The notes: generated by a model from the sequence alone, not told the origin. A stretch of DNA of 64,000 nucleotides from a virus (IMGVR_UViG_3300029698_000133:8559-72558); one strand, 5' to 3'; positions 45,107-61,411 are shown, counted from the stretch's first letter. Made by a program: numbers and translations.

Positions 45107-45391
45107 TCAGTGTGCGTTCCGGATGCACCATTCGATGGCGTGTCCGGCATCCGAGAAGACCTCATCCGAAATCTTCAGCAGTTCCAGTCGGCACTCGATC
45201 GATGAAAGCCCTTCCTTGGGGTCCTCAGCGAATCCGTAAACCGCAGCCTCCACGCCGCCCTTCCAGTTCGTTTTGGCAACCAGAACCCGGTCGCCAAACT
45301 GCAGGATGCTGTCGTTGCAGGGACTGAGCAGGTCGTAGTAGCTCTCGATGCTGATGCTGTGTTCCGGGAAGTTGTTCAGATGCTTCTTCAT
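45107..45391 (-). CDS. hypothetical protein (94 aa)
   Basis: RBS ACGGAGGAT, downstream of cassette 2. Confidence 0.5.
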   Translation of the reverse strand: MKKHLNNFPEHSISIESYYDLLSPCNDSILQFGDRVLVAKTNWKGGVEAAVYGFAEDPKEGLSSIECRLELLKISDEVFSDAGHAIEWCIRNAH

Positions 45392-45429
45392 GGTGAAATC
45401 CTCCGTGTTTTTTCATTCCGTAGGGTCTT

Positions 45430-45525
45430 CCCCTTTCGGTATGCACATATTACCGTCATGTGGGGAGGATAGCAAGCGGCTATGCTGCACGATCATCCGC
45501 CCGGAATACCGGGCAGAATGTACAT
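45430..45525 (-). promoter_or_regulatory. repeat cassette copy 2 (TTGCTA-17-TAATAT, leader GGGGAAGACCC)
   Basis: Homologous to copy 1. Confidence 0.6.
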
Positions 45526-45749
45526 CACTCTCCGTCCTCGGCATCCTGTTCAATGAATTCCCGGATTACTTCATAAAAGAGCTGGGGGTCGTATTCCAGC
45601 GGCTCACGACCTTGGGAAAAATCAATTTCAATCTGGTCCTTGACCATCTCCTTGGCAGCTTCCAGCGTGAAGCCAGCCTTATCCTCGTCATTCATATTGT
45701 TGTAGATGTCCACGATAAGGTCCATGACTCTTTCGTCGTTCATACTCAT
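45525..45749 (-). CDS. hypothetical acidic protein (about 74 aa)
   Basis: RBS GGAGGA before MSMNDERV. Confidence 0.45.
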   Translation of the reverse strand: MSMNDERVMDLIVDIYNNMNDEDKAGFTLEAAKEMVKDQIEIDFSQGREPLEYDPQLFYEVIREFIEQDAEDGE

Positions 45750-45862
45750 TCCTCCGTTGCCCCACCACCTCGCCACACAGCCCCTGTGTGGGGCTTGTGC
45801 GGTTTGGTTGGGGGAGTTTGTTGGCTTGCATCTGCGCCCCCTTTGTGGGGGCTGTGTCGGGC

Positions 45863-46057
45863 TTACTTCTCCGCCTTGCCCAGAAGGTAGGCTTCCTCCA
45901 TGGCTTTCTGGATGCCCCAGACGGGAACCTCGATGAAATCCTCACTGTCGCAGCCGTGCGCTTCAAGGTCGCCTCGGTTTTCCACCTCCACCATCAGGCG
46001 CTTTGCGATGTCCAGCAGGGCTTTCTGCTGCTTCCTGGTCAGGGTCTGCTTTTTCAT
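45863..46057 (-). CDS. hypothetical protein (64 aa)
   Basis: Downstream of cassette 3. Confidence 0.45.
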   Translation of the reverse strand: MKKQTLTRKQQKALLDIAKRLMVEVENRGDLEAHGCDSEDFIEVPVWGIQKAMEEAYLLGKAEK

Positions 46058-46077
46058 GTCTATGTACCTCGCTTTCG

Positions 46078-46160
46078 TTTTTGTGACTGTATATTACCGT
46101 CACGTCCCGCAGATAGCAAGGCCGCAGATTACACGATCATTCACGCCAGGATCGGTGTAT
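46078..46160 (-). promoter_or_regulatory. repeat cassette copy 3 (TTGCTA-17-TAATAT, short leader)
   Basis: Homologous. Confidence 0.55.
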
Positions 46161-46225
46161 ATTTGAGAGCCCTAGCACAGGAAAAGGGGCCGCCCTTTCA
46201 GGCAAGCCCCCCCGCAGTTTTCTGC

Positions 46226-46714
46226 TCAGTAGTCTTCTTCCTCATCGTAGTCGTCTTCGCAGTCGTCGTAGTCCTCTTCCTCATCGTAGTCGTCTTCGCA
46301 GTCGTCGTAGTCCTCTTCCTCATCGCAGCTGTCGTCCCAGTCTTCCGCCATATCGCGGTAATCCCACATATCCTTGGTGGGCTGGCTGCGAAGGTCGGGG
46401 TTCTGCTTGATGTAGTCGGCAACCGCACCCTCAAGGGTATCCAGAACCTTTTCGTAGGCATCCTCGCTGAAGATCTCCCAAAGGGCTACGGTCAGGCTGC
46501 TGATTTCTGCGTTGCCCTTGGCGATCAGGAACCGGGCCGCGGGGTTGCAGGTTTCTTTGCCGTAGCCCTGGTTGACCATGTCGCCGTCGTTGAAGAATCG
46601 GTACCCGATCCGTGCGGTGGCTCTGACCAGTTCTCCGGCGAGGCTATCCGCCTTGCCGCTCGTGGGAACCAGTTCCTCGAAAAGCTTATTGATGCGGTTT
46701 TCATTCTTCGTCAT
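46226..46714 (-). CDS. acidic protein with C-terminal D/E/Y/C-rich tandem repeats
   Basis: C-terminus DYDDCEDDYDEEEDY encoded by about 2.5 copies of a 42-bp tandem repeat (46226-46330); RBS GGAGGATACAAAA. Confidence 0.5.
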   Translation of the reverse strand: MTKNENRINKLFEELVPTSGKADSLAGELVRATARIGYRFFNDGDMVNQGYGKETCNPAARFLIAKGNAEISSLTVALWEIFSEDAYEKVLDTLEGAVADYIKQNPDLRSQPTKDMWDYRDMAEDWDDSCDEEEDYDDCEDDYDEEEDYDDCEDDYDEEEDY

Positions 46715-46759
46715 TTTTGTATCCTCCAGCGTGTTTTTTGTGTTTTCCGTGGGTTTTTC

Positions 46760-46848
46760 CCTTTCGGTATGCACATATTACCGTCACTTTCGCACACTAT
46801 CAAGCGGCTATGATACACGATCATTCGCCCCTAGATTTGTGTACATTC
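46760..46848 (-). promoter_or_regulatory. repeat cassette copy 4 (TTGATA-17-TAATAT; leader GGGAAAAACCC)
   Basis: Homologous. Confidence 0.6.
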
Positions 46849-46918
46849 AGGCGGTATGACATTGGACGGACACGAGCAAAAGGCCGGTTTCCCAGCCCCT
46901 TGCCCCTATCCGTCCGGT

Positions 46919-47179
46919 TTACTTGCGGATTTCGAGGTAGCTTGTATTGCCCCAGCAATCGGTGGTCTTGAACCGCACCTTCTGTTCGGTTTCCCGGTCG
47001 AGGGCAACCTTCTTCAGAAGTTTCATCTTCTGGATGCGCCGCAGAAGGTCTGCTGCGTTCTCGGCATCTTCGATGGCATCCTGGATCTCGACCACCGAGC
47101 AGTCGGTGCCGTACCAAAGATTGCTGAGTGCCTCCGGAATGCCGTTGGCAGTGAAAAGTCGGATGTTCGTGTAGGTCAT
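46919..47179 (-). CDS. hypothetical protein (about 86 aa)
   Basis: RBS AGGAAGATAAACACC. Confidence 0.45.
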   Translation of the reverse strand: MTYTNIRLFTANGIPEALSNLWYGTDCSVVEIQDAIEDAENAADLLRRIQKMKLLKKVALDRETEQKVRFKTTDCWGNTSYLEIRK

Positions 47180-47199
47180 GGTGTTTATCTTCCTTCGTT

Positions 47200-47290
47200 T
47201 TTGTGATTGTATATTACCGTCACTCAAGGGTGATAGCAAGCGGCTAATGTACACGATCATCTAGCCCAGCACTCCGGAAAATGTGTCACT
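47200..47290 (-). promoter_or_regulatory. repeat cassette copy 5 (TTGCTA-17-TAATAT)
   Basis: Homologous. Confidence 0.6.
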
Positions 47291-47840
47291 TTGCGCCGTC
47301 GTGGTATTCCTCGATATACTGCCTTCCGTCCGGTTCGGTGACCACCGCAGGGTAGCGCACACGGCTGCCGTGCCGGGTCAGGAGCTCGGCGGCAAGGTCT
47401 GCAAGTTCTCCGAGGATCTCCATGTTCCATTGGAGGTCGTCATCCTCCGCCATGACCTTGCAGAATTCATACGCAGCGTTGTAGATCTCATCGTTGCGGG
47501 CACTCTGGGCATCCGAAAGCTCCAGTTCCTCGTCCGTCTCCGGCGCCGTGGATTTCGGGCACTCTGCCCAGCGCCCTTCGTAGGTCTCGCCAGCCTCACA
47601 GCCGTCGGCGTCGTATTCGTTGACCCGAACCCACCGGTTCGACTGGAACACTCGCTCGGTGATGCCGTTCTTCCGGATGCTGAGCATCACCTTCTCCCCA
47701 TTTTCATTGACACCCCACAGGGCATCCGGGTAATCCCCGAACTCCTGAATCATCTGACGGCGAGTGGCAAGGTCGCCAAAATTGGCGGCCAATACATTGA
47801 GCCGGATCGTGTCCAGCTTCTTGTCCAGTTCCATTTTCAT
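47286..47840 (-). CDS. hypothetical protein (184 aa)
   Basis: RBS AAAGGGGAGAACGAAC; stop overlaps the next cassette. Confidence 0.5.
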   Translation of the reverse strand: MKMELDKKLDTIRLNVLAANFGDLATRRQMIQEFGDYPDALWGVNENGEKVMLSIRKNGITERVFQSNRWVRVNEYDADGCEAGETYEGRWAECPKSTAPETDEELELSDAQSARNDEIYNAAYEFCKVMAEDDDLQWNMEILGELADLAAELLTRHGSRVRYPAVVTEPDGRQYIEEYHDGAK

Positions 47841-47857
47841 GTTCGTTCTCCCCTTTC

Positions 47858-48064
47858 TCAAAATTCCAAGGTTTCCAGAACCTCGTCCGTGCCGGTCTCC
47901 CAGTCGTGGCGGGTCAGGCGGATGCGGCTGTACATCTCGGCGCTGTCCGGCTCATCGAAAAGCCGGAAGCATTCTCTGGCAACCCCCTCATCGGTGTACT
48001 GCTGGGTCTCGTCGGGCTGGCCGTCCAGCCGGGTGAAGGTGATCTCGTAGGTGTAGCGTTCCAT
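47858..48064 (-). CDS. hypothetical protein (68 aa), coupled to the downstream gene
   Basis: ATGA overlap with gene 47286-47840. Confidence 0.45.
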   Translation of the reverse strand: MERYTYEITFTRLDGQPDETQQYTDEGVARECFRLFDEPDSAEMYSRIRLTRHDWETGTDEVLETLEF

Positions 48065-48084
48065 GTTTTTTCCTTCCTTTCCGT

Positions 48085-48185
48085 TTCGGTATGTGCATAT
48101 TACCGTCGTTTCGGCATAATAGCAAGGCCATAAAACGTCATATTATCGACGATCATCAGCCCATATCTTTGGTGGATCTATGTCG
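48085..48185 (-). promoter_or_regulatory. repeat cassette copy 6 (TTGCTA-17-TAATAT)
   Basis: Homologous. Confidence 0.6.
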
Positions 48186-48825
48186 ATAAATGGCCTTGAT
48201 AAATATGGTATCGGCTTTCATTGTAATGTGCCGTTCTGCCGTAGTTTGCGTGGTTGCCGGCGTACCAGATGTCGGCAAGCTCGGTCATGGTCGTCGGCTT
48301 TCTCTTGTTCAGCTGGTCAAGGAATCGGGGGTCGACCACTCGGTAGTACTGTCCGGTTCTGCCTGCATCGATGCGAATCGCTCTGCCGATCTGTTCTTCG
48401 TGGGCGGCCATGATGTTGACCAGATTCCGCAGGGTCTTGGGGGTGTGGTTGCCCTTGCCGATGTGGATGTGAACGCCGCATCCCCGGCTGGGGCTGGACT
48501 TTGCGCCAGCCTTGCGGAGCAGTCGGATGATCGCCTGCAAGGTCTCGATATCCTCGTAGGTAAGGATGGGGGTCACCATCTCGCACTTTTCAGCTTCCGG
48601 TCCGTGGATGCTGATGTCTCGCTGGAATTTCCAAACCCTGCCCTGCTGGTCCTTGCAAGCCCAGCTCATGTACCCGTACTCGCCGGCTGCGTACCATGCG
48701 GTCGTCCCGAAGAACTCGGCAACCTTTCTGGCGGCTTTCTCGCGGGTGATGTTGTTCATCTCAACCTCGACCCCGATGGTCTGCATCTTCATGGCTTCGA
48801 TCTGCTCTCTGGTCTTATCGTTCAT
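48178..48825 (-). CDS. amidoligase-family protein (Amidoligase_2 / glutamine-synthetase-like)
   Basis: N-terminal TIGVEVEMNNITREKAARKVAEFFG and CGVHIHIG blocks typical of the phage/plasmid putative-amidoligase family; RBS AAGGAGATAAACACC. Confidence 0.55.
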   Translation of the reverse strand: MNDKTREQIEAMKMQTIGVEVEMNNITREKAARKVAEFFGTTAWYAAGEYGYMSWACKDQQGRVWKFQRDISIHGPEAEKCEMVTPILTYEDIETLQAIIRLLRKAGAKSSPSRGCGVHIHIGKGNHTPKTLRNLVNIMAAHEEQIGRAIRIDAGRTGQYYRVVDPRFLDQLNKRKPTTMTELADIWYAGNHANYGRTAHYNESRYHIYQGHLST

Positions 48826-48859
48826 GGTGTTTATCTCCTTTTGTCTTGTTCTGTTCCCC

Positions 48860-48958
48860 TTGCGGTATGTGCATATTACCGTCATGTGGGCAGGATATCA
48901 AGGCCATAAAGGGTCAAATAATCACCGATCATTCAGAGCAAAGATCGTGTACATTATG
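48860..48958 (-). promoter_or_regulatory. repeat cassette copy 7 (TTGATA-17-TAATAT; leader GGGGAACAG)
   Basis: Homologous. Confidence 0.6.
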
Positions 48959-49056
48959 GTGAAAAACACACTTGATACTGTACATTTTCAGAGTTAATAT
49001 CGGTACAATGGAAGAAGCTCTCGCTTATCCAGCGGCCCCCATAAGGGGTCAGGAGC

Positions 49057-50205
49057 TTACGCTCCCGCCTCCTGCGCCTGGGGTGCGCCGTCAGCCCCAC
49101 AGTCGGGCTGTGTGGGGGCTTCCGCTGCCGCTTCGGCCGTTTCCTCGGCGGCAGAAACGCCGCCGTGTGTCGCCTGTTTTGCGACTTTCAGCGCATCTCG
49201 TTTTGCCTTTTCCTTGACCCGGAACTTTTCGGCATCTTCCTTGGTGCGGAATGCCGCATGACCGGTAAGGTTCTGCATCAGGAGCTTGCGGATGGTCTTG
49301 TGTTCATCCCCGTTCAGACCCAGTCGGATCAGCCAGATGCGAAGTGCGTACTTCTCATTGGCATCGTTGACGGTCTTTGCCTGAATCCGCTTTTGGGTAA
49401 CTGCCATCCGGTTCATAGCGGAACAAAGTTCTGTGTATGCACTCACCTTCTCCTGCGTCAGCGGACCGGCAAAGGTCAGGCTGATTTTTTCTGCCGTGAT
49501 AGAGATTCCAGTCATGCCGGTTGTGCCGGCACCCAGGCGGTACTCTTCCAGCTCATCCAGCATCTCCTCCACCGTGCGGGTAGATGCCTGTTCCACGGCA
49601 TCCAGCAGGCTGTTCGATACCGAGAAGTTCGTGCCCATTGCTTTGTTCAACAAAGGACCGCGGCTGTACATCAGGTTCAGGAAGTTGCGGATGCTCTGGG
49701 CGGTATGCCCAGACATCGGAAGGCTGATGGTCAGCTCGTCCACATCCTGCAAGGTCGGCTGTTCGGTCGGAACAGGTGCCTCGTCCGCATCGGTGTCGTT
49801 CACGGTGTCCATCGACTCATCCACGTCCACCGGTTCCTGAGCTTCCGGGGATTCCTCGGCAGTTGCGCCCGGTTCCACGGTGGGCTGGGTATCTTCGGTG
49901 CCGTCCACAGTCTCATCTGACTCTTCACACTCCGATTCCGTGGCCTCCCCACAGGTGGCTTCCGTTTCCGGAGTCCCCGGGGTTTCCGCACCTTCCTCAC
50001 GGATGATGCCCTCGTCCAGCAGCGTCCGGATGATCTCCGGCGCAGCGCTGTCTTCGATCACAAGCGTTCCCTCCTTTTCTACGGTGTAGCTGCCGACGAT
50101 GTAAGCGCAGCGCAGCATGAAAGTGTACCGGGAATGAAGCCCGGTCAACTCCATCAGGCGGCTTACCAGAACCTTGCGGTCATCAATATTCAGTGCATAC
50201 TTTTT
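49057..50205 (-). CDS. hypothetical protein (about 382 aa) with central acidic Thr/Glu/Pro-rich linker
   Basis: RBS AAAGGGG before MKKYALN; no recognisable catalytic motif. Confidence 0.5.
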   Translation of the reverse strand, partial: KKYALNIDDRKVLVSRLMELTGLHSRYTFMLRCAYIVGSYTVEKEGTLVIEDSAAPEIIRTLLDEGIIREEGAETPGTPETEATCGEATESECEESDETVDGTEDTQPTVEPGATAEESPEAQEPVDVDESMDTVNDTDADEAPVPTEQPTLQDVDELTISLPMSGHTAQSIRNFLNLMYSRGPLLNKAMGTNFSVSNSLLDAVEQASTRTVEEMLDELEEYRLGAGTTGMTGISITAEKISLTFAGPLTQEKVSAYTELCSAMNRMAVTQKRIQAKTVNDANEKYALRIWLIRLGLNGDEHKTIRKLLMQNLTGHAAFRTKEDAEKFRVKEKAKRDALKVAKQATHGGVSAAEETAEAAAEAPTQPDCGADGAPQAQEAGA

Positions 50206-50229
50206 CATGGCTTTGTGCCCCTTTCTTTG

Positions 50230-50365
50230 TTTTCGGTAGCACATATATCGCTCTGAATCGATGAAATAGCAAGGCCATTTCTCGACATTCTTCATATTCG
50301 ACCTTTTACACGATCCGTGCAAAACACGACTGTGCAAGATCATCCGATATGTACGCCCACTGTAT
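50230..50365 (-). promoter_or_regulatory. repeat cassette copy 8 (degenerate)
   Basis: Retains the TTGCTA box and the GATCGTGTA upstream box. Confidence 0.4.
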
Positions 50366-50412
50366 CACGGGGTCATTCTAACCTCGCAATACGGTGGGCC
50401 GTTTTATTGGTT

Positions 50413-51219
50413 TCAGCCGGCTCTTGCTTCCAGCGCAGCGATGCGACGCTCAAACTCTGCCGCCTGGTTTTCCAGTGCTTCGAGTCTCTCGGCATCCGTC
50501 TTGGGCTTTTCCTCGGTTTCTCCGTCAAGGATCAGGTAGCGTTCCATGACATATCCGGGAATGGTGTCGTAGGTTACAGTACACCAGCCGTCTCCCTGCC
50601 CGGTCACATCCAGCCGGGCACCGTTGGGAATCCACGCCAGACGGTCAGAGGTCTTGGACGGAGCCTGACGCAGACTCAATCGACCACCTGTGACAGTCGC
50701 CTTGTTTCTGATCTCCTGCATCTTGACTTCGCTCATCTCTGCTTCCTCCCGAATCATTCCATAGTCGATGCCCTTCAGCCGGCCGCCATATCTCCACTTG
50801 CCGAGCATTGCATCCCGGTGGATGCTGTTGCCGTTCACTGTAGTAGAGCAATGTGTGATCTCCAGCGGATGCACCTTGGTGACAACGCCCACATGGTAGT
50901 AGTCCAGCAAATCATCGCCGACCTTGTAACGGTCTGGCAGACTATAGCTGCTGTCTCCCGGCTTTCGGGCTTTATAGATAACTTCGCCAACAAACAAATC
51001 TGCGGCTTTGATTTCTCCAAAGTCCGCCATTTGTTTCCGGGCTGCATAGTTGCTGCCGTGGATGCCTGTCCAGCTCCCACCAGCCCTGCGGACTGCGCCG
51101 ATGATAAGACCAATGCAGTCACAGGTACCATCCGTACCGCTGCCGCCGATGCGATAGTCCGGTTTCGTGGCACAGATGGTTTCGAGCTGCTCACGAAAAG
51201 CAGTCAGGGTGATGCTCAC
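50413..51219 (-). CDS. NlpC/P60 (C40) peptidase with C-terminal SH3b domain
   Basis: Catalytic Cys context GTCDCIGLI and His YHVGVV; SH3b-like TVTGGRLSLRQAP...GWCTV; GTG start 3 nt after the MTase stop. Confidence 0.65.
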   Translation of the reverse strand: MSITLTAFREQLETICATKPDYRIGGSGTDGTCDCIGLIIGAVRRAGGSWTGIHGSNYAARKQMADFGEIKAADLFVGEVIYKARKPGDSSYSLPDRYKVGDDLLDYYHVGVVTKVHPLEITHCSTTVNGNSIHRDAMLGKWRYGGRLKGIDYGMIREEAEMSEVKMQEIRNKATVTGGRLSLRQAPSKTSDRLAWIPNGARLDVTGQGDGWCTVTYDTIPGYVMERYLILDGETEEKPKTDAERLEALENQAAEFERRIAALEARAG

Positions 51220-53564
51220 TCCGATTCACTCCCATTCTCAGGCGATCCGGCCACCCAGACGATGCCGGACAGTACAAAAAAGACACACGGCAGTGCGACA
51301 CCATTGCCCCAGAGCTTATACTCTGCGGCATCCGAATACGGATCAGCCAGCCATTTCCGGATCTGCTTTTCCGTCTTCGGCTTCTTGGCCTGAGTCACAA
51401 GTCTGCGGTGCGTTTCAAACACATCCCGCCAGAAAGAGATTTCTTCTTCCGTGGGATTCTCAGTTTCGAGGTCACGGCACCACCAGTCCGGGAACCCCTG
51501 CAGCCGAGCGCACTCGGTCGGGGTCAGACGACGAACCGTATAGGACACTGGAACCGGCTGTGCGTCCGGGTTATCGATGACCAGCCGGTCATTGAAAGCG
51601 TCCTGCCCGTTGAAGCCGCTGGGATGTGCCCCGGTCGCCACCGTTCCCGACACGCCATCGTTCAGGTGCGGCACCGGTGCTATGGTGGCAGGGTCTTTAA
51701 AGTCCCGGGCCATAAGGGTGGGAGACACATTCTCCTCGATCCTCATGAAGGAGCCGGTGGTCATGGCGTAGACATCCTCCGGTGCGCAGACTGCGTGACG
51801 GTCAGTGGCATCCAGCGTAAAGCAGACATCTTCGTTGATGCCGTCGCCTTGCGGACCATTCTCGTCTTTGCGGCCGATCATGTTGCCCTGCAGCACGAAG
51901 GTCTGCATCTGGTCGCTTCGGGTCGCCATGAGCGCACCGGACTTTCCATGCAGGTCGATCAGCTCATTGCGCTGATTCACATGGAATGCCGTCACGTCAT
52001 CCGGCTGCGCCACAAAGGTCTGCTGTTTCATTCCCGGCTGTGCAGACAGCGAACCCGCTGTTTCGCCCAGATCCCGGACTTCATCCCGCTGGTTCTGGGT
52101 AAAGGCTACTGCCGGTGCGCCGCCATGGGTGCAGGCCAGAGGCGGTGCCACCTGTTCGTCTACCGTGCAGTTCGACTTGCCTCCACCCTGATCCACGCAG
52201 ACAACAGGTTCACAGATACACAGCCCGCCCTGATTGCAGGTCGGGTCACCGCCACTGCGATCCAGCGTCCGGGAAGTTTCCGCTTCATAGAATCCGCTGT
52301 GGGGGTTATCCGACATCATGGAATGGCTGGCTTTCGAGCAGACACCGTAGCACTTCGGGACGAATACAGTTTGGTCATTGTTGCAGCCGAGGGTGGCGGA
52401 CTTATCCTCCTGCCAGATGGCGCCCTTGCCGCCTCCTTCACACCCAGAGCGAATCTTCAGCGTGACGGCCGGCAAGTTTTCCACCCCTTCCCTACTGTTT
52501 TCTACGCCATCCAGAACCAGCGGAACATTGCCTCCACCCGTACCGCATCTGCTGGTCAGCGTCTGTACCTTGCCATCCCTTGCGATCTTCACCCGGCTAT
52601 CAGTCGGATGATTTTCCAGAGCGATGGCGGCAGGCACGACTCCGGCACGGAGGGTGGGAGAACGTTCTTCCTCATATCCGATGCTCCTCGCATTGGCGGA
52701 GTGTTCGGTACAAAAACCTGCGGATTCCAGAACGCAAGGCGGGTGATGTGCCTCTGCCTGGAGAGTGGAGGTCACCTCCTCGGTCACATCCATCCTCTCC
52801 CCGCCCTGGTCGTTCAGGCAGATTCTTCCGCAGCAGCCTGCCGTTCCAGTGCTGCCTTCAGCACCGGAGGCAGCTCTTTGCCACGCACGGAAGCTCTCCG
52901 CAGAATACCCAGACACGCCTTCGGACTCAAATAATATTTTGGGGGCACCGTGGTCTGCAAAATCTGCGACAAGGTAGATGCGTTTTCTCCTTTGGGGTAC
53001 GCCCCACCATTGAGCGTCAAGAACTCGATACGCGACGCTCCATCCGTCTCCCAGATAGTAATCCGCATCGGGCCAGCCTTTTTTGTCAGGTGCAGGCACC
53101 TCGGCGGACGGTTCCTTAACACCGATGACGGCTTCGAGGACGGCTTTGAAGTCCTGTCCTTTGTTTGAGGAGAAGGCCCCCGGCACGTTCTCCCACACGA
53201 TAAATCTTGGTTTTGCTCCATTGGTCTTACACCTCATTTCCTTCACGATGCGAATTGCTTCATAGAACAGGCTGGACCGTGAACCATCCAGACCGTCTCT
53301 TTTGCCGGCAATGGACATATCCTGACAAGGACTGCCAAAGGTGATGATGTCCACCGGCGGCAGGTCTGCGCCGTTGATGGCGGACACATCCCCGTAGTGC
53401 TTTACCTCCGGCAGACGCTTGGTCGTGACCCGGATGGCGAAGGGTTCCACTTCGCTGCTCCACAGCGGTGTGATACAACCTGTCAGTAAACCGCCCAAAG
53501 GAAAACCCCCGGAGCCATCAAAGAGGCTGCCGAGGGTCAGTTGGATATTCGATTCGGTGCTCAT
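51216..53564 (-). CDS. DNA (cytosine-5)-methyltransferase, unusually large (782 aa), possibly multispecific
   Basis: Motif I LFDGSGG, motif IV GSPCQDMS, motif VI ENV, C-terminal TVRRLTPTECARLQGFPDWW; about 450 aa between motifs VIII and IX. Confidence 0.85.
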   Translation of the reverse strand: MSTESNIQLTLGSLFDGSGGFPLGGLLTGCITPLWSSEVEPFAIRVTTKRLPEVKHYGDVSAINGADLPPVDIITFGSPCQDMSIAGKRDGLDGSRSSLFYEAIRIVKEMRCKTNGAKPRFIVWENVPGAFSSNKGQDFKAVLEAVIGVKEPSAEVPAPDKKGWPDADYYLGDGWSVAYRVLDAQWWGVPQRRKRIYLVADFADHGAPKILFESEGVSGYSAESFRAWQRAASGAEGSTGTAGCCGRICLNDQGGERMDVTEEVTSTLQAEAHHPPCVLESAGFCTEHSANARSIGYEEERSPTLRAGVVPAAIALENHPTDSRVKIARDGKVQTLTSRCGTGGGNVPLVLDGVENSREGVENLPAVTLKIRSGCEGGGKGAIWQEDKSATLGCNNDQTVFVPKCYGVCSKASHSMMSDNPHSGFYEAETSRTLDRSGGDPTCNQGGLCICEPVVCVDQGGGKSNCTVDEQVAPPLACTHGGAPAVAFTQNQRDEVRDLGETAGSLSAQPGMKQQTFVAQPDDVTAFHVNQRNELIDLHGKSGALMATRSDQMQTFVLQGNMIGRKDENGPQGDGINEDVCFTLDATDRHAVCAPEDVYAMTTGSFMRIEENVSPTLMARDFKDPATIAPVPHLNDGVSGTVATGAHPSGFNGQDAFNDRLVIDNPDAQPVPVSYTVRRLTPTECARLQGFPDWWCRDLETENPTEEEISFWRDVFETHRRLVTQAKKPKTEKQIRKWLADPYSDAAEYKLWGNGVALPCVFFVLSGIVWVAGSPENGSESE

Positions 53565-54331
53565 ACAGCCTCCTCTCCGAGCATCTGCTCTTTTGCTTTC
53601 AGGTAGAAGTCCCTGGACACTTCAAATCCGTAGCTGTCACGTCCCAGTTCTCTGGCCGCGCGGAGCGTTGCCCCGCTGCCGGCGCAAGGGTCGATGACCA
53701 CATCTCCGGGATCGGTAAAGATCTCGATCAGGCGTTTCAGCACGGACACCGGTTTCTGAGACGGATGAATCTTCGGATAGTCCTTGCCATCCCGTTTCCA
53801 GTCAAACCAATTGAAGATCATGTGGGACTTGCCGTCTTCACCGACGTTGTTGAACTTCGGGAGCTTGCCCCGGTAGAGGACCAGCGCATACTCCGTTGCA
53901 CCCACGATCTTCATGTTGGCTTTCAAGACCTGCGGGCTGTAGTTCTTACAGAAGGTCAGCGGGATATAGTTTTTGAATCCGTACTTCTCAGCTTCCGTGA
54001 TGACCTTGGGGATCTGCTGGAACGCACAGAACACGATCATGCACGGTGCGCCCTTTTTCCCTTTCATGGGTTCTTTCTTCAGCAGCCGGTTACAGAAATG
54101 GAAGTATTCTGCGATATTGAAAGTGAAGTCGGTGTTGAATGCCGCTTTCCGGGCCTTATCGCTCTCTCCGTTCCGGTTATCTCCGTCCACATACCAATCC
54201 GGGCGACTGGCGTAGAAGTCCGACCCGATGTTATACGGGATGTCGGCAATCACCAGCTGTGCCTTGGGGATGTTGTAGGACTTGAAGTTCTGGAAGTTGT
54301 CATGGAACAGGACACATCTGGGTTCAGTCAT
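53561..54331 (-). CDS. DNA methyltransferase (N6-adenine or N4-cytosine, beta class)
   Basis: Motif IV variant DIPYN precedes motif I DPCAGSGAT; RBS GGAGGACGCAG. Confidence 0.75.
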   Translation of the reverse strand: MTEPRCVLFHDNFQNFKSYNIPKAQLVIADIPYNIGSDFYASRPDWYVDGDNRNGESDKARKAAFNTDFTFNIAEYFHFCNRLLKKEPMKGKKGAPCMIVFCAFQQIPKVITEAEKYGFKNYIPLTFCKNYSPQVLKANMKIVGATEYALVLYRGKLPKFNNVGEDGKSHMIFNWFDWKRDGKDYPKIHPSQKPVSVLKRLIEIFTDPGDVVIDPCAGSGATLRAARELGRDSYGFEVSRDFYLKAKEQMLGEEAV

Positions 54332-55592
54332 CTGCGTCCTCCTGTTCCGGCTGGAATGATGCCACCTCATCGAACTTCAGCTTTTGACCGCTACGGAGGA
54401 CATACACATCCTCGTAGCGGTCTGCGCTGTGCTCGATATAGCGCTTGACGATGACATCCACGAATTTGGGGTCAAGCTCAATGCCCCGGCACACCCGGTC
54501 AGTCTCCTCACAGGCGATCAAAGTCGAGCCGCTGCCGAGGAAGGGGTCAAGGACGATGCCGTTGGTCATGGTGGAGTTGCGGATGGGATAGCTCATCAGG
54601 CCGATGGGCTTCATGGTCGGGTGATCCTTGTTGGCCTTGGGACGGTCGTACTCCCAGATGGTGGTCTGCTTACGGTCGGAGTACCACTGGTGCTTGCCCT
54701 TCAGTTTCCACCCATAGAGGCAGGGTTCATGCTGCCACTGATAGGGACTGCGACCCAGCACCAGAGCATTCTTTTTCCAGATACAGCACCCGGACAGATA
54801 GAATCCCGCATCCTTGAACGCCTTTCGGAAATTCAGACCTTCCGTATCGGCGTGGAAGATGTAGATGGAACCGTCATCCGCCAGATGACCGTGCATTTGC
54901 TTGAACGATGCCAGCAGGAACTCGTAGAATTCCGAGTCGCCCATGTTGTCGTTCATGATCTTACCGGCCGTTTCTTCCACATCTACATTGTACGGGGGAT
55001 CGGAAAGCACAAGGTTGGCCTTCACGCCGTCCATCAGGGTATCGTAGCACTCCGCCTTCGTGGAATCACCGCACAGAACACGGTGCCGGCCCAGCATCCA
55101 AAGGTCACCTGCCTGCGAGAAGGTCGGCTGTTTCAGCTCAGATTCCACATCGAAGTCATCTTCCTTGATGTCCTTGTCGTGGACCTTGTTGAACAGCGTC
55201 TCGATCTCAGGCGGCTCAAAGCCCGTCTTGCCCAAGTCGAAGTTGGAGTTCTCGATATCTTTCAGCAGGTCAGCCAGCAGGGAATCATCCCATGCGCCGG
55301 TGATCTTGTTGAGCGCGATGTTCAGAGCTTTTTCTCGGGTCTTGTCGATGTCCACCACCGCACAAGGCACTTCAATATAGCCCAGTGCCATTGCAACGGT
55401 CAGGCGTTGATGGCCGCCGATGATCGTCATATCGGCATTGACCACCAGCGGATCGGCAAAACCGAACTCCTCAATGGAGTTTTTGATCTTCTCGTACTCC
55501 TTGTCCCCCGGCTTCAGCTTTTTCCGGGGATTGTATGCCGCCGGCTTGAGTACGGACACCGGCAGCATTTTCAGTTCAGCAGTTGCTTTCAT
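54324..55592 (-). CDS. ParB-like nuclease domain fused to an N6A/N4C DNA methyltransferase
   Basis: N-terminal ParB box (IIGGHQRLTVA), SDPPYN motif IV, C-terminal LDPFLGSGST motif I. Confidence 0.8.
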   Translation of the reverse strand: MKATAELKMLPVSVLKPAAYNPRKKLKPGDKEYEKIKNSIEEFGFADPLVVNADMTIIGGHQRLTVAMALGYIEVPCAVVDIDKTREKALNIALNKITGAWDDSLLADLLKDIENSNFDLGKTGFEPPEIETLFNKVHDKDIKEDDFDVESELKQPTFSQAGDLWMLGRHRVLCGDSTKAECYDTLMDGVKANLVLSDPPYNVDVEETAGKIMNDNMGDSEFYEFLLASFKQMHGHLADDGSIYIFHADTEGLNFRKAFKDAGFYLSGCCIWKKNALVLGRSPYQWQHEPCLYGWKLKGKHQWYSDRKQTTIWEYDRPKANKDHPTMKPIGLMSYPIRNSTMTNGIVLDPFLGSGSTLIACEETDRVCRGIELDPKFVDVIVKRYIEHSADRYEDVYVLRSGQKLKFDEVASFQPEQEDADD

Positions 55593-55836
55593 GTAGTTCC
55601 TCCCAGTTTAGATTCACACACGCATGACCTCAGAGAACGGAACAAAAAAGGAGCCGAACTCAAAGCCCGACTCCAGTTCATCGCTGTCCCCGCCCATCTC
55701 CGACTGCGGTTTTTCCGTAATCGGATACCATTCCGGGGCTATCCCGTTCATGGAAGCAAGGACTCTGTCCTCTGCATGGTCAATCTCATGTACACAGATG
55801 CCTGCGGTGTTGCAGACTGCAAATACGCCGATCACT

Positions 55837-56139
55837 TTATTTTCCAATGCTGCTTTCTCCCTTCGCCCTGCCCTTATTGGCACAGGCTCGACTGCAATAT
55901 TTTCTTGGAAGTCCGTACTGGTGGCGGTAGGAAAACTCTCTGCCGCACATCGGGCAGACCTTTGACCGCACGGTCTTCCAGTTCTGCGGTCTTGGGTGGG
56001 TGTTGTTCCACTTGGATCGGCATTCCGGGGAACAGAATTTTCTCGGTCGTCCCCGATGGTTCGGAACGATGGCAGCACCACACTGCGGACAGAAGGAAAA
56101 TGCCATGTCCTTGATCATCTCGGCCGTGTAATCTTCCAT
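55837..56139 (-). CDS. zinc-ribbon protein (two CxxC...CxxC modules)
   Basis: CPQCG...CSPECR and CPMCG...CSRACA. Confidence 0.5.
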   Translation of the reverse strand: MEDYTAEMIKDMAFSFCPQCGAAIVPNHRGRPRKFCSPECRSKWNNTHPRPQNWKTVRSKVCPMCGREFSYRHQYGLPRKYCSRACANKGRAKGESSIGK

Positions 56140-56539
56140 CCATCCTCACCCCGTCCTCATTTTTCGCCGTTTCTATGTCGGTTCCAGTGGAAAATCTCAA
56201 AAAGCATACGAAAAGAAGCGAAGCGGCAGCCGGCCCTGCCCCGCCGGGTTAGTTTGTTTTTGCGGCGTCCGGCTGCTGCTGGCTTCTCCATGTCCCGGAA
56301 CAAGCTAAAACGTGCGAAAAAGCCCATGTTGCAAGGGTTTTCACACGCTTTGGTTCATTTCGGGGGAAAACAAAAGGCACCGGAGCGTTCACCCCGATGC
56401 CCTCATCTTCACCTTGTTCATTTTGCGCCGTTAATTCCGGGACCCCCGGCCTATGAATTTTGCGTTTTTTTACACGAAAGGGGCCACCGGTCTTCTGTTG
56501 ACTTCACCACAGAGAAGTGACCCCGGCCCCCGGTGGGGG

Positions 56540-56899
56540 TCAGTAGTGGTACACCGGGTGGATGTCTTTGGTCAAAGTCTTGCGGTCATGGCATTGCTTA
56601 CACATCGGTTGCCAGTTAGCTTCGTCCCAGAAAAGTCCGGGATCGCCACGGTGCGGTGTGATATGGTCTACCACGGTGGCTTTCGTGTATCTCCCCTGCC
56701 TCATGCACTCGGCGCAGAGCGGATGGGCTTGGAGGTACTGCCTGCTTATTTTTTGCCACTGCCGTGTATAGCCACGCTTACCCGCCGGGCGTGTAACTTC
56801 CGGGTGCAGCGGCAGGTGCTTTACACAGTAGAGGTTGCCCGGCTCAACGAGCTCCGGGCAACCGGGGTGTCGGCACGGCACCTTGGGTCTGCGGGGCAC
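56540..56899 (-). CDS. HNH endonuclease
   Basis: CxxC...VDHITPH...N...CKQCHDRKT zinc-finger HNH motif. Confidence 0.8.
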   Translation of the reverse strand: MPRRPKVPCRHPGCPELVEPGNLYCVKHLPLHPEVTRPAGKRGYTRQWQKISRQYLQAHPLCAECMRQGRYTKATVVDHITPHRGDPGLFWDEANWQPMCKQCHDRKTLTKDIHPVYHY

Positions 56900-56902
56900 G
56901 GG

Positions 56903-57970
56903 TCATTCCTCCCACGGCAGACCGGGCTTGCCGAAGTGACCGTAGGCACTGACCTTGTTGTAGTCCACGTCCAGCAGCCCCAGACGCTGGATGATACCCT
57001 GCGGGGTCAGGTCGTAGCTGTCCTTGACGTAAGCCTGGATGAAGTCAAGCGGCTGGTGTTCCGTGCCGAAGCACTCCACCGCCACGCCCACCGGCTGTAC
57101 CACACCGATGGCATACGCCAGCTGGACTTCGCACTTGTCAGCGTAACCTGCCTGCACGATATCCTTGGCGATCTTCCGTGCCATATACGCTGCGGACCTG
57201 TCCACCTTGGTGGGGTCTTTGCCGCTCAGAGCACCGCCGCCCATTCGACCGATGCCCCCGTAGGTATCGCACGCCAGCTTACGGCCGGTGACACCACAGT
57301 CGGCGTAGCTGCCGCCCAGCACGAACCGGCCGGTGGGGTTCACCAGTTTCTGGAAGTTCCCGTCCAGACCGTATTCACAGGCAGCCAGCACCATCATGGA
57401 TTCGATGATGTGGCGGAAGTCGCTGACCTCCACGTCCGGGCCATGCTGCACAGAACAGAGGAAGGTGGTGATCCGGCCGGTGTCGTAGTCGTAGCTGACC
57501 TGTGCCTTGGCATCTGCCCGGAACATCTTGGACGGATGGTTCTTCAGCAGTTGCAGGAACTTGGTGGCGACCATGTAGGGGATCGGCATCTGCTCTGCCG
57601 TCTCGTTGGTGGCGTAGCCGTACATGATGCCCTGGTCACCGGCACCGCCCTTATCCACGCCCAGTGCGATATCCGGCGACTGCTTATCGACCAGGATGCC
57701 GATGCGGAGCAGTTCCCGGAAATCAAAGCCCATCTTGTCAACACCGATGCGGGTGATGACCTCATGGACGAGCTGCTGGTAGTTGGGCTGGTAGTCGGTG
57801 GTGACCTCGCCGGCAATAAAGAGCTGGCTGCGTTTCAGCAGACACTCGATTGCCACACGGGCGTTCTTGTCGTGCTGGAGGATGTCGGTCACAATGGCGT
57901 CTGCGATCTGGTCACAGATCTTGTCTGGATGACCATTGCTGACCTGCTCACAGGTGATAATCTTGCTCAT
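56903..57970 (-). CDS. metK: S-adenosylmethionine synthetase (MetK), compact 355-aa form
   Basis: GHPDKICDQI, GAGDQG, DTYGG, GGGALSGKD and KVDRSAAY motifs co-linear with bacterial MetK. Confidence 0.85.
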   Translation of the reverse strand: MSKIITCEQVSNGHPDKICDQIADAIVTDILQHDKNARVAIECLLKRSQLFIAGEVTTDYQPNYQQLVHEVITRIGVDKMGFDFRELLRIGILVDKQSPDIALGVDKGGAGDQGIMYGYATNETAEQMPIPYMVATKFLQLLKNHPSKMFRADAKAQVSYDYDTGRITTFLCSVQHGPDVEVSDFRHIIESMMVLAACEYGLDGNFQKLVNPTGRFVLGGSYADCGVTGRKLACDTYGGIGRMGGGALSGKDPTKVDRSAAYMARKIAKDIVQAGYADKCEVQLAYAIGVVQPVGVAVECFGTEHQPLDFIQAYVKDSYDLTPQGIIQRLGLLDVDYNKVSAYGHFGKPGLPWEE

Positions 57971-58442: not shown

Positions 58443-60851
58443 TCACTCCGGCACTACATTGAAGTCGCCTTTTGTGGTTTCGGAGAGGCAGAACTCCACG
58501 CCCAAAACGATCTGTGTCGTACTGCCGACACCATCCGCCGGACGCTTTTTCTGAACGGTGTACCTCTTGTCGATCTCGGCATTCAGCGCCTTGGCCGAGT
58601 CTGCCCTGTACCCGTTTTCAGCACACCATTCCTTGTAGCGTGTATAAACGGCAGCACGGCGAAGCTCACTATCTGCTTTCGGTTGGAGACATTCACTGAA
58701 GAACTGCCCCATCTTATCCGAGAACATCTGGTAGTCCATGGTGGCCTGCACGACAGAATCCGGCATCTCCAGACCCTGACTGCGAAACAACTTATACCCT
58801 TCCAGCATCCAGTTCAGGATACCAGACATATTTTCCGGTTCCGCAAAGAAGCCCTTCAATCCCTTATCCTGCTCTTTTTCATCAAAGTGGCGGTCAAAGG
58901 GAATGATTTTGATACGACCGGACTCGAACAAGGTCAGGTCCGTGATGTTCGGACGGTGGTTCGTGTTGATGAAGATCTTGAAGTTCGGACGGAACTCGAA
59001 GCTATTCTCATGCAAATATCGGGCCGTAATGGTGTCGTTACCAGTCAGGCGTTTGGTCAGGGCAGCATCCAGCGTGATCTTCTTCTCCGGCTCTGAGATA
59101 TTGACAAACCGGGAGCCGGCAAGGCGAGCGATTTCCTCAGACGGTCCACCACTTTGGGCATTGAACTTTGCCTGCAGCATGGTGGGGTCGGCGTTTTTGC
59201 CGTACTCGCCCATGATCCGCAGGATGCTTTCCATGGTGGTACCCTTGCCATTTCGGGAAGTAGGACCATAGAGGATGAACAGACATTCCATCCTCGTATC
59301 GCCAGTCAAGGCATATCCGATGGCTTTTTGCAGATAGTCGGCTCTCGCCTTATCCCCTTGCATGATCTCTGTGATGAAAGTCCGCCAGCGAGGGCAGTCT
59401 GCTTTCGGGTCATAGATGACCGGAGACACCTTTGTGAGGTAGTCGTCCGGGCGGTGTTCCCGGAACTCCATCGTCCGCAGATCCAGCGTTCCGTTCTGGC
59501 AGTTGAACAGGTAGATGTCCCGGTCGTAGTGTTTCATGGACAGTGGAAACACAGACTTTGCATCCTTCAGCATGGTTTCCCGATGCTTTCGGAGCTGGAG
59601 CTTCCGCACCCGGTCGATGAATCGCTTTCGGGCATCCTCCTCTGTGATCGTCAGGGCAAACACATACAGCTTGTCCGCCAGCAGCTTCGCCAGTTCCGCC
59701 ACCTTGAGGTTTTCGGTGTCCGGCTGCCAGACCTTCCCGTCATAGACATACCAGATGCCGCGCTCACTGTTATACCGGGCGATGGGCTTGAAGAAATCGG
59801 CAAACATATTGCCCATGCCGATCTCATCCCTGCCGTATCTGGGATTGGTGTGCGGAGCCATCTCATCCAGTGACAGGGTGAGCTTTGTGATGTCCGGCTG
59901 GAACTCCGGGGATTTAGACTCCGGGTCAAGGTTTGTGAACTCCTCGTCCACGATGTCCTGTGCGTTGACTGGAACGTACACCGCTGCACAGGTGTTGACG
60001 GTGTTCCGAATGGAGATCGCACCGTAAGTCGTACCGGCCTGCCGACGATCCCACTTGTCACGCATCAGGCCGGAGGTGCGAAAGATGCGGTCCATCTGTT
60101 CTTCATCGCAGCCGCACCAGAACGCAAGGATGGACAGAAGTGCCATGTCCGCATCCGACTGGCTGTCATAGAGTTCTTCCCAGTCACCGGCATAGAGCTT
60201 CTTGAACTTGTCACCGTTGCTGGCCTCCTCTGCGTGGGCAATGACTGCGTCATCGTCCAGATACGAGTGATGCCGAAGCTGGGTGTTCTGCACCTGCTTG
60301 TTGCGCTTCATCAGCGAATCCAGCAAGGTGGTCATCGCCGTCTCATCGTTGGGGATCTCCCCTGTGCGGTAAACATCTCCCGTCACGGTGACGAAGCGGT
60401 TTGTCGCACCGGGCATATACACTTCCAGCCCTTTGCTTCGGTTGTTGATGTAATAGACTGTCTTGTCGTAGATAAAATCTTCCGGCACACCAAAAAAGCC
60501 TCGCAGTCCCTTACCGGACGGAGACTTCTCAACGTATGCCGTGGGGAAAATGGAAAGGACGGTCGCTGCTGTGTCGTTCAGCGTCCCATCCTCTCTGAAA
60601 CAGTGGTCGATATCAAAAGCACCGATGCCGTTGCCGACCGCAATGCCGATGCCGTCGTACCCGCCCATGGCATAGGTCATGAGGGTAGTCTTGAAATCGG
60701 CAAATGTGCGCAGGTCGTTGATTCTGGCACGGTCACCGTTGGCCGGGTTGTACGGCATCTTGGTCTTCTGACCGCTTCGCTTTTCAAACTTCCAGACGCA
60801 GAACCGGCAGTCACTTTTCAGTCTCGCAGGGATATTTTTGATGTCTACCAC
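58443..60851 (-). CDS. bifunctional primase-polymerase / P4(D5)-type helicase (phage primase)
   Basis: N-terminal prim-pol domain (GIGIAVG...FDIDH), C-terminal D5_N plus SF3-type Walker A ILYGPTSRNGKGT; 802 aa. Confidence 0.85.
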   Translation of the reverse strand: MVDIKNIPARLKSDCRFCVWKFEKRSGQKTKMPYNPANGDRARINDLRTFADFKTTLMTYAMGGYDGIGIAVGNGIGAFDIDHCFREDGTLNDTAATVLSIFPTAYVEKSPSGKGLRGFFGVPEDFIYDKTVYYINNRSKGLEVYMPGATNRFVTVTGDVYRTGEIPNDETAMTTLLDSLMKRNKQVQNTQLRHHSYLDDDAVIAHAEEASNGDKFKKLYAGDWEELYDSQSDADMALLSILAFWCGCDEEQMDRIFRTSGLMRDKWDRRQAGTTYGAISIRNTVNTCAAVYVPVNAQDIVDEEFTNLDPESKSPEFQPDITKLTLSLDEMAPHTNPRYGRDEIGMGNMFADFFKPIARYNSERGIWYVYDGKVWQPDTENLKVAELAKLLADKLYVFALTITEEDARKRFIDRVRKLQLRKHRETMLKDAKSVFPLSMKHYDRDIYLFNCQNGTLDLRTMEFREHRPDDYLTKVSPVIYDPKADCPRWRTFITEIMQGDKARADYLQKAIGYALTGDTRMECLFILYGPTSRNGKGTTMESILRIMGEYGKNADPTMLQAKFNAQSGGPSEEIARLAGSRFVNISEPEKKITLDAALTKRLTGNDTITARYLHENSFEFRPNFKIFINTNHRPNITDLTLFESGRIKIIPFDRHFDEKEQDKGLKGFFAEPENMSGILNWMLEGYKLFRSQGLEMPDSVVQATMDYQMFSDKMGQFFSECLQPKADSELRRAAVYTRYKEWCAENGYRADSAKALNAEIDKRYTVQKKRPADGVGSTTQIVLGVEFCLSETTKGDFNVVPE

Positions 60852-61411
60852 GTTCTCGCCTCCTTCTTGGTAGTAGTGTCGGCAGTGCCCATGTTAAAGA
60901 ACACCACGATTGCCAGCTCCACTTCCCTCTGCTTGGCGGTAGAGGTCAAGCTGCCCAGCTTGTTCAGCAGGGCGTTCTTTCCGATGGTCGTGACCTGCTC
61001 TGCCAGTGCGACAGAGTTGCGCAGATACGCATGGTCATTGATCATCTGGCAGTCTGCCTCTGCAATCTGGATGTGCGTGGGCAGACCCAGCTTCTTCTGC
61101 ACGGTGGTCAGGGGGATCACCGTGAGCGTGCTGGAAAACCGATTTGCCACATCGTTGCTGATGACCAGCACAGGGCGGCTGCCGCTTTGCACGGAACTGC
61201 CGTAATGGTTGCCCAGCTCGGCAAACCAGATCTCGAACCGCTGCACGATCTGCTGCGGAGAATCCTGCTGCGATATGTCCTGCCGCAACGCTTCCTTCTG
61301 GGCAGACTTTTCAGTCCGGGCTGTGCGCTGCTTGCGCAGCAGCCGCCCTTTCTGGTTGATGTATTTATTCACATGAGGTCTTGAACGACCGTTTTTATTC
61401 TTGCGACCCAA
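60845..61411 (-). CDS. MazF/PemK-family endoribonuclease-like protein with about 55-aa basic N-terminal extension
   Basis: EIWFAELG...GSRPVLVISNDVANRFSSTLTVIPLTT...LPTHIQI matches the PemK/MazF fold signature; 7-nt overlap with the primase start. Confidence 0.6.
   Translation of the reverse strand: MGRKNKNGRSRPHVNKYINQKGRLLRKQRTARTEKSAQKEALRQDISQQDSPQQIVQRFEIWFAELGNHYGSSVQSGSRPVLVISNDVANRFSSTLTVIPLTTVQKKLGLPTHIQIAEADCQMINDHAYLRNSVALAEQVTTIGKNALLNKLGSLTSTAKQREVELAIVVFFNMGTADTTTKKEARTW

Follow-up and report, generated by a model that had tools for sequence, protein, structure and literature searches.

The 64,000-nucleotide (nt) stretch of viral DNA IMGVR_UViG_3300029698_000133:8559-72558, referred to in its full length as the window, carries on its minus strand six genes for a compact S-adenosylmethionine (SAM) synthetase (MetK), an HNH endonuclease, a zinc-ribbon protein and three DNA methyltransferases (MTases), the last a 782-amino-acid (aa) C5-cytosine enzyme whose variable region holds about 12 tandem units resembling target-recognition domains (TRDs). 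Together these probably form an anti-restriction module: three orphan MTases, among them a C5 enzyme of about 12 modules, with MetK as an accessory. A more far-reaching version, held only tentatively, is that most of the approximately 12 cassettes are functional with separate targets, making the enzyme hyper-multispecific, that cassette shuffling tracks the restriction repertoire of the hosts, and that MetK sustains the resulting demand.

The C5 enzyme and its parts are as follows, with positions counted from the first letter of the window:

51216-53564, minus strand: C5-cytosine MTase, 782 aa (PF00145, TIGR00675)
52950-53564, minus strand: catalytic lobe of the C5 MTase, motifs I-VIII, aa 1-205 (alignment to M.HhaI and M.HaeIII)
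51573-52817, minus strand: array of about 12 tandem TRD-like units, aa 250-664 (motif statistics, cassette variation, profile comparison)
51219-51542, minus strand: motifs IX-X of the C5 MTase, aa 675-782, an insert of about 55 aa lying between the two (alignments)
51888-51906 and 52005-52023, no strand: 19-nt direct repeat with 117-nt spacing, flanking one 39-aa unit (repeat search)

The enzyme matches PF00145 in three stretches (6.9e-41; 141 bits vs. a cut-off of 22), TIGR00675 (138 bits vs. 100.65) and the PADLOC “oMTase” model PDLC03715 (REBASE-derived, 719 positions; 1e-278), so the family is already catalogued. Its motifs FDGSGG, PCQ, ENV, QRRKR, RRLTPTE and GNG follow one another in canonical order and are invariant in 122 homologs. 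Motif IX (RRLTP, aa 678) comes 482 aa after motif VIII (QRRKR, aa 191-195), and no other Pfam domain was found in between; the initial annotation of the window had correctly pointed to a large variable region here, at a length of about 450 aa that measurement revises upward.

By eye, this region resolves into about 12 units of 21-49 aa, each of the form ..(S/T/A)x(T/S/P)L x(A/S/T) .. variable loop .. hydrophobic strand. A signature, [SA].T[LIV], was derived from the enzymes of the Bacillus phages SPR, rho11s, H2 and SPBc2, whose variable regions contain 3, 4, 4 and 2 copies, one per visible TRD-like unit; these counts reportedly equal the TRD numbers of the Trautner-lab literature, with the rho11s and H2 pseudo-domain counted in. 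The variable region of the 782-aa enzyme contains seven copies vs. 0.93 +/- 0.94 in shuffled versions (a 7.5-fold enrichment; 2 of 20,000 shuffles reach 7, P ~1e-4), and the remaining 295 aa of the protein contain none. Five further units have relaxed signatures (VQTL, APPL, AGSL, SGAL and CFTL).

Motif statistics and profile-profile comparison were used because the repeats are too short and divergent for BLAST and hidden Markov models (HMMs): self-BLAST of the variable region found no internal repeats, and an HMM built from seven Bacillus TRDs gave only three weak matches. When alignments of the 12 units were compared with hhalign, on query columns only, the mean score was 11.0 vs. 7.8 for reversed controls, and 19 of 66 unit pairs scored above 12 vs. 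2 of 66 (paired Wilcoxon p 3e-6), the high score of unit 7 with unit 8 possibly reflecting alignment ambiguity. Unit 10 (EDVCFTLDATDRHAV) matched the Bacillus TRD profile at E 1e-5 and 83% hhalign probability, and the other units at E 0.002-0.4. The Bacillus counterpart of unit 10, EPAFTVNTIDRHGVA, is common to all four phage enzymes; these presumably all methylate GGCC, and to assign unit 10 a target on that basis would be speculation. A sequence search of the PDB with units 10-11 returned nothing at E up to 10. Parsing of the region for tandem TRDs, as had been proposed, thus yields about 12 TRD-like units and makes multiple target-recognition domains plausible, while the outcome named in advance as fatal to the idea, a single unrelated domain in the insert, is excluded: what is found is an array of units like those of SPR, rho11s and H2. 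To judge from its sequence, the C5 enzyme would be a hyper-modular variant of a known multispecific kind.

Variation within the family follows the same unit boundaries. Homologs are numerous, with 37,040 cluster representatives when the E-value limit is 0.001 and 4,073 when it is 1e-30; of the more than 8,000 relatives that share words with the enzyme, the best 120 are 72% identical or more yet range from 726 to 825 aa, the length differences being clean cassettes that match units. In homologs at 76-97% identity, units are cleanly present or absent, duplicated, or relocated. An alignment of 122 sequences contains 8 core and at least 9 accessory units, all bearing a motif of the T-L type; one type of accessory unit (ENHSQDTRY..TV..TYGMGGNNQPFVV) stands at three different positions in different proteins, one homolog has a tandem duplication of units 5-6, and the 39-aa unit 9 (aa 515-553), bracketed by the 19-nt repeat, is missing in one relative (P0031) and in 71 of the 122 homologs. 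Across 60 full-length cluster representatives the variable region spans 117-701 aa and grows by about 40 aa per motif (r = 0.71), and C5 proteins of 620-824 aa occur within otherwise near-identical viral modules. The array evolves, then, by gain, loss, duplication and relocation of cassettes. Modular behavior of the TRD region was reportedly described for the Bacillus enzymes by Walter and colleagues in 1992 and Trautner and colleagues in 1996; the cassette modularity here is on three to four times the scale of those enzymes.

How many of these units work is another matter. One rival, which seems to us rather unlikely, is that few of the approximately 12 are working TRDs and the rest are decayed pseudo-domains, spacers or TRD halves, leaving an ordinary enzyme of two to four specificities. 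There is precedent in rho11s and H2, each with a fourth TRD-like unit besides the other three; rho11s is said, in the Trautner-lab literature, to have three specificities, its fourth unit being an inactive “pseudo-domain.” Some units of the present array are very short, five have degenerate signatures, and the array is predicted to be disordered. Several further observations weigh against extensive multispecificity: short units such as unit 5 (21 aa) may be too small for complete TRDs, the T-L motifs are spaced at about 34 aa on average (23-43) vs. 30-48 aa in the Bacillus enzymes, plain BLAST of unit 10 against the SPR TRD gives only a weak match (E 0.39), and no functional data on this C5 family were found in the searchable literature. 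Yet eight units are kept in at least 100 of the 122 homologs at 48-97% identity, with F582, T583, L584, D588 and H590 invariant, which argues for selection rather than decay, and accessory units have been gained as well as lost.

With 32 close homologs, AlphaFold2 gave a mean predicted local distance difference test score (pLDDT) of 29 for the whole model; with 122 sequences (48-97% identity) the catalytic lobe scored mostly 70-95, dipping at aa 40-49, 81-96 and 186-192, and aa ~700-740 scored ~70-80 and the residues beyond them 34-56. The intervening aa 217-697 scored 20-28, so the model lends no structural support to TRD-like folding of the units. Could the whole region simply be a flexible, low-specificity DNA tether, making the enzyme a promiscuous C5 methylase and a counterpart of the prophage adenine methylase M.EcoGII? 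Low AlphaFold confidence fits disorder, the region is rich in Gly, Ser and Thr, and M.EcoGII shows that phage orphan MTases can have relaxed specificity. This is nonetheless very improbable in view of the conserved units, their sharp cassette boundaries, the TRD signature and the profile-level kinship to Bacillus TRDs; invariant aromatic, His and Asp residues are not what a disordered tether would usually retain.

Upstream of the C5 gene on the same strand lie the other five genes of the block and two hairpins:

56903-57970, minus strand: MetK, compact SAM synthetase, 355 aa (three MetK Pfam domains, TIGR01034)
56540-56899, minus strand: HNH endonuclease, 119 aa (PF01844, phrog_144)
56373-56404, minus strand: terminator-like hairpin of 14 pairs, after HNH (consensus scan)
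55837-56139, minus strand: Zn-ribbon protein, 100 aa (two CxxC...CSxxC motifs, phrog_2308)
55650-55674, minus strand: terminator-like hairpin of 11 pairs plus T-run, between the Zn-ribbon gene and the ParB-MTase (consensus scan)
54324-55592, minus strand: fusion of a ParB N-terminal domain and an N6_N4 MTase (ParB-MTase), 422 aa (PF02195 and PF01555)
53561-54370, minus strand: second beta-class N6A/N4C MTase, 269 aa (PF01555, phrog_67)

All six genes are where the initial annotation had placed them on the minus strand, and Pfam, NCBIfam and PHROGs agree with each assignment. The 3-nt gap that it reported between the MetK stop and the HNH start is there, as are the overlapping starts and stops of the MTases: 4 nt each between the 269-aa MTase and C5 genes and between C5 and the next gene, and 47 nt between the ParB-MTase and the 269-aa MTase (8 nt if Met14 is the start). 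Its picture of one contiguous block goes too far. MetK is preceded by a gap of 472 nt, the Zn-ribbon gene by one of 400 nt and the ParB-MTase by one of 244 nt; the latter two gaps contain terminator-like hairpins and split the block into MetK-HNH, the Zn-ribbon gene and the three MTases, with the qualification that the hairpin evidence is a consensus scan only, at 13 sites vs. 7.9 +/- 3.6 expected. An Rfam search of the three gaps found no credible SAM riboswitch or other RNA.

Three MTases of different classes had been claimed, and three are found, of two chemistries. The ParB-MTase combines ParB_N (PF02195, 6e-8) with PF01555 (9e-28, vs. 4e-25 for the 269-aa enzyme) and matches phrog_498 (2e-185) and the PADLOC MTase_II model PDLC03229 (5e-171). 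Both amino-MTases have the beta-class motif order, with LSDPPYNV (motif IV) N-terminal to LDPFLGSGST (motif I) in the ParB-MTase, and ADIPYNIG (motif IV, a DIPY variant) followed by IDPCAGSGAT (motif I) in the 269-aa enzyme. A survey took in 61 species genomes that have a long C5 homolog preceded by 6 kb or more of sequence; in 60 of them the ParB-MTase is next to the long C5 MTase. The 269-aa MTase occupies an optional slot, present in 38 and absent from 20 of 58 related viral loci, and in NatCom_17901 a PAPS-reductase-like gene stands in its place. The description of the MTases as orphans is borne out: no restriction-enzyme family was detected in the block, the C5 enzyme matches the PADLOC orphan-MTase model, and the MTases are not adjoined by a cognate restriction endonuclease as in a restriction-modification system, the HNH being of the phrog_144 type.

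The HNH protein (PF01844, 1e-9; phrog_144, 2e-36) adjoins MetK in most of 80 related IMG/VR loci with sufficient flank. PHROGs annotates its family as HNH endonuclease and gives the label terminase-associated to one related family; HNH proteins of HK97-like phages help terminase in cos cleavage. It is probably a packaging accessory rather than part of the methylation machinery. The Zn-ribbon protein has only sub-threshold matches to Pfam zinc ribbons, along with matches to phrog_2308 and to the Zn-ribbon parts of HNH PHROGs, and its gene keeps its position among the IMG/VR loci. A role for these two as methylation components, as first envisaged, finds no support.

MetK matches all three of its Pfam domains (PF00438, PF02772 and PF02773), reaches 400 bits where the TIGR01034 equivalog cut-off is 309.4, covers positions 2-346 of the 346 in phrog_1569 (E 1e-134), and aligns over residues 4-354 with E. 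coli MetK (7ll3/1fug; 3e-96). The motifs GHPDK, GAGDQG, DAK, D.G.TGRK and GGGA.SGKDP.KVDRS are kept, and GGGALSGKD differs from GGGAFSGKD by one conservative change. Its length of 355 aa vs. 384 aa in E. coli is due to deletions of 5, 4 and 3 aa, the first adjoining the flexible loop, and a shorter C-terminus. The protein is thus complete but compact, as had been said, with catalytic residues that align with those of E. coli MetK, and no inactivating substitution, the other outcome that would have told against the idea, is present in the motifs listed. On this basis MetK is predicted to be a catalytically intact SAM synthetase.

The block can be followed through many relatives. Eighty IMG/VR contigs have a MetK 71-99% identical to the present one, and wherever the flank suffices they keep the order primase, MetK, HNH, Zn-ribbon, ParB-MTase, optional 269-aa-type MTase, C5, a 428-aa open reading frame (ORF) and an amidoligase. 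For C5, MetK and the large terminase subunit (TerL), the closest annotated genomes are the NatCom gut phages (Candidatus Heliusvirales) and Streptococcus Javan/group-A prophages, both with the order replication genes, MetK, (HNH), adenine MTase, C5 MTase, small genes, small terminase subunit (TerS), TerL; the same order is seen in Streptococcus Javan426. TerL is 76.7% identical to that of NatCom_42228 and equally close to those of Streptococcus Javan prophages, and the synteny of the module is common to both groups, placing the phage, as far as these sequences indicate, in a TerL lineage common to Ca. Heliusvirales and MetK-carrying Streptococcus prophages. Among species-representative genomes, long C5 homologs occur in Blautia faecis and Faecalibacterium intestinale (83% identity), Clostridium fessum, many Lachnospiraceae and Oscillospiraceae, and, as a conserved 709-aa form, in Bacillaceae and soil Clostridium.

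Copies of the 709-aa form are 52-53% identical to the 782-aa enzyme, with MetK about 1.3 kb upstream and TerL downstream, and are found in Robertmurraya, Heyndrickxia, Lysinibacillus, Niallia, Bacillus thermotolerans, several Clostridium species and Dehalobacter, a range of hosts that is exceptionally broad for one element. In some relatives (L108, L110, L132, L149 and L164) the MetK match extends over only about 200 aa, and the genes may be truncated or short forms. Some public annotations are off (PV036444.1 29804-30853 and PV036413.1 26821-29010): NatCom_42228 has its MetK entered as “peptidase,” and “hypothetical protein” is the label given to the long C5 MTases of both NatCom_991 and NatCom_42228.

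Is MetK there to serve the MTases? The alternative, which we regard as doubtful, is that phage MetK is a general auxiliary metabolic or lysogenic-conversion gene, acting on host methionine and SAM, quorum sensing, surface phenotype or other SAM enzymes. MetK lies within 8 kb upstream of the long C5 gene in only 28 of the 61 species genomes and not in the other 33, and MetK-HNH, with its own promoter-like sites and a terminator-like hairpin parting it from the MTases, appears to be a separate transcription unit. A radical-SAM gene adjoins the C5 gene in one relative. Where MetK is present the C5 protein is longer, at a median span of 709 vs. 669 aa (p 0.026), a difference confounded by 13 copies of one element. 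Viral metK has been read as an organosulfur auxiliary gene (Kieft et al., bioRxiv 10.1101/2021.01.05.425418). When the related endonuclease-metK pair of an S. agalactiae prophage was deleted and complemented, aggregation and biofilm were affected, metK partly restoring aggregation and glycocalyx, which is a role in host phenotype (PMC8223999). Against this alternative, the place of MetK directly upstream of the MTases is kept from Streptococcus to Clostridia and Bacillaceae elements, the gene sits among lytic-cycle genes on the lytic strand, and all 28 MetK-positive loci carry both the ParB-MTase and C5. Kieft et al. also report viral metK as widespread and under purifying selection, with conserved substrate-binding motifs, and find it together with dcm in phages of Streptococcus suis. 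Among GenBank phage records, 137 of 50,697 have a MetK homolog, 90 of them from Streptococcus. A literature search for experiments on phage MetK supporting methylation or counter-defence found none, which is not proof of absence. Within the anti-restriction reading, MetK is an accessory and not a requirement; with its absence within 8 kb in 33 genomes and its apparent transcription with HNH, the term “self-sufficient” first applied to the block is unsupported or at least too strong.

As an anti-restriction module, the block would work as follows. Transcribed as part of the stretch from replication to packaging genes, it would act on phage DNA that is still replicating and not yet packaged; position and strand suggest such lytic-phase expression. 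The ParB-fused adenine-type enzyme, the optional second amino-MTase and the C5 enzyme would mark the DNA, allowing progeny to survive restriction in the next host. Each functional module of the array would pair in turn with the single C5 core to methylate a different short sequence, so that one C5 polypeptide could cover many restriction specificities; unit-wise specificity and protection of progeny DNA would be expected by analogy with SPR, phi3T, rho11s and H2. MetK, from its own MetK-HNH unit, would top up SAM when many genome copies need fast methylation, and this boost for a methylation burst is the weakest step of the proposal.

A rough estimate, on assumptions of our own, gives some idea of the demand. 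Typical 4-5-bp GC-rich sites occur in 148-432 copies each in the 59-kb region, so a dozen specificities and two amino-MTases might add a few thousand methyl groups per genome, and a burst of about 100 on the order of 10^5. The latter figure is about the size of a bacterial SAM pool, which would make a supply role for MetK plausible. A further point against blanket protection, which would not predict it, is that several GC-rich palindromes are still under-represented in the prophage; decay of 5-methylcytosine could also cause such depletion.

Markov-corrected observed/expected ratios over 5001-64000 are 0.29 for CCWGG, 0.38 for GGWCC, 0.40 for CGCG, 0.47 for ACGT and 0.51 for GGCC; GTGCAC is absent vs. 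22 expected, and CCGG, GCGC and GCSGC are at expectation. These counts, made without a host background, could reflect restriction avoidance or methylated-cytosine decay.

If most of the units do work, these would be the most multispecific DNA methyltransferases known, in a very widespread human-gut prophage lineage, and the reading would extend to thousands of relatives in gut Bacillota prophages. One gene would then immunize a phage against many Type II restriction specificities, helping to explain how temperate Clostridia phages cross strain barriers of differing restriction systems, and the family would be a natural catalogue of short protein modules vs. their 5-methylcytosine targets, useful for specificity prediction and enzyme engineering. 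The MetK link, if true, would be a case of a phage boosting, not destroying, a cofactor pool for counter-defence. Should no more than two or three of the units be functional, what remains is a usual anti-restriction module of a phage, in a lineage for which such modules are already listed.

The wider setting is that of a prophage of an HK97-like temperate siphophage of gut Clostridia. The methylation block lies between the primase and terminase genes: upstream are a D5/primase-helicase and a MazF-like toxin, and downstream, on the same strand, a P27-type TerS, TerL, portal, ClpP-like protease and HK97-type capsid, with a 1957-aa ORF of tape-measure size (judged by its length) beyond the capsid gene. 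Origin from a conjugative element is ruled out by the terminase, portal, protease, capsid and putative tape-measure genes.

A second modification-type module lies directly downstream of the C5 MTase (45107-51219, minus strand). It includes an NlpC/P60-like and SH3 protein immediately after C5 (50413-51219), detected only in the closest IMG/VR loci; a 428-aa protein and one with an Amidoligase_2 domain (each phrog_2443), which accompany the MTases in the IMG/VR loci; and a protein with an Nmad4 “nucleotide modification associated” domain (45107-45391, minus strand). In relatives, this module also has a gamma-glutamyl cyclotransferase. The MazF/PemK-like toxin just upstream of the primase (60845-61411, minus strand) has an N-terminal extension of about 55 aa, and a MazF-like gene is found at a similar place in Clostridium phage NatCom_42228. 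An Abi_2 (PF07751, 1.9e-27) abortive-infection-like gene in a low-GC island between portal and TerL (40990-41956, plus strand) looks like a moron protecting the lysogen. At the left end are an IS21-type element (1417-3746, plus strand), consisting of an rve/Mu-transposase-C ORF and an IstB ATPase, and a tRNA gene (4102-4175, minus strand), which may mark the prophage boundary or attachment site.

The gene content of the block is an already documented feature of this phage lineage. The commonest putative auxiliary genes of Heliusvirales genomes are C5 MTase (67%) and MetK (58.9%; De Jonge et al., 2024, PMC11283538), and the initial description of a less-documented strategy is unsupported or too strong: metK and dcm have been reported as a common auxiliary pair, including in this lineage, and the S. 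agalactiae endonuclease-metK pair has been mutated. Heliusvirales and Streptococcus Javan elements share with the present phage the gene order between replication and terminase genes and the compact size of MetK, at 75-77% identity for TerL, 53-61% for MetK and 43-56% for the C5 MTase; the C5 gene of Javan426 is short and split, unlike the 782-aa gene here. The publications consulted on these elements consist of KEGG-number gene lists or studies of host phenotypes, and in them neither a TRD array nor a test of SAM supply for methylation is found. A literature search for giant multi-TRD phage MTases likewise found no description of their architecture or specificity, which is not proof of absence. 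The ParB-MTase is a typical phage ParB-fused beta-class amino-MTase, matching phrog_498 over its full length and agreeing with it in domain order and in the motifs DPPY and FxGxG; no feature sets it apart from that family.

A close parallel is with the Bacillus enzymes M.SPRI, M.Phi3TI/M.SPBetaI, M.Rho11sI and M.H2I, which like the present C5 MTase are phage-encoded orphan enzymes with one core and an enlarged region between motifs VIII and IX. Both have tandem units of the form ..G.S.T(L/I/V)T....h.h(E/P), and in both, whole units are what distinguishes natural variants. Here 482 aa of variable region hold about 12 units, vs. 186-279 aa and 2-4 units in the Bacillus enzymes; the present units are shorter on average than Bacillus TRDs, the catalytic domains are only about 30% identical, and in the present enzyme an additional insert of about 55 aa parts motif IX from motif X. 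Its hosts are anaerobes, gut Clostridia rather than Bacillus, and its multispecificity is predicted.

In its handling of SAM the phage had been contrasted with T3/T7-like phages, said to degrade it. Only T3 is known to encode a SAM-cleaving enzyme, T7 relying on the DNA mimic Ocr, and the comparison needs narrowing accordingly. The T3 SAM lyase (SAMase) is a case of a phage dealing with restriction-modification and BREX through the host SAM pool (bioRxiv 10.1101/2023.02.27.530186): T3 destroys SAM and blocks host MetK, disabling SAM-dependent defence, whereas the present prophage, encoding a predicted SAM-making enzyme of its own, would act in the opposite direction.

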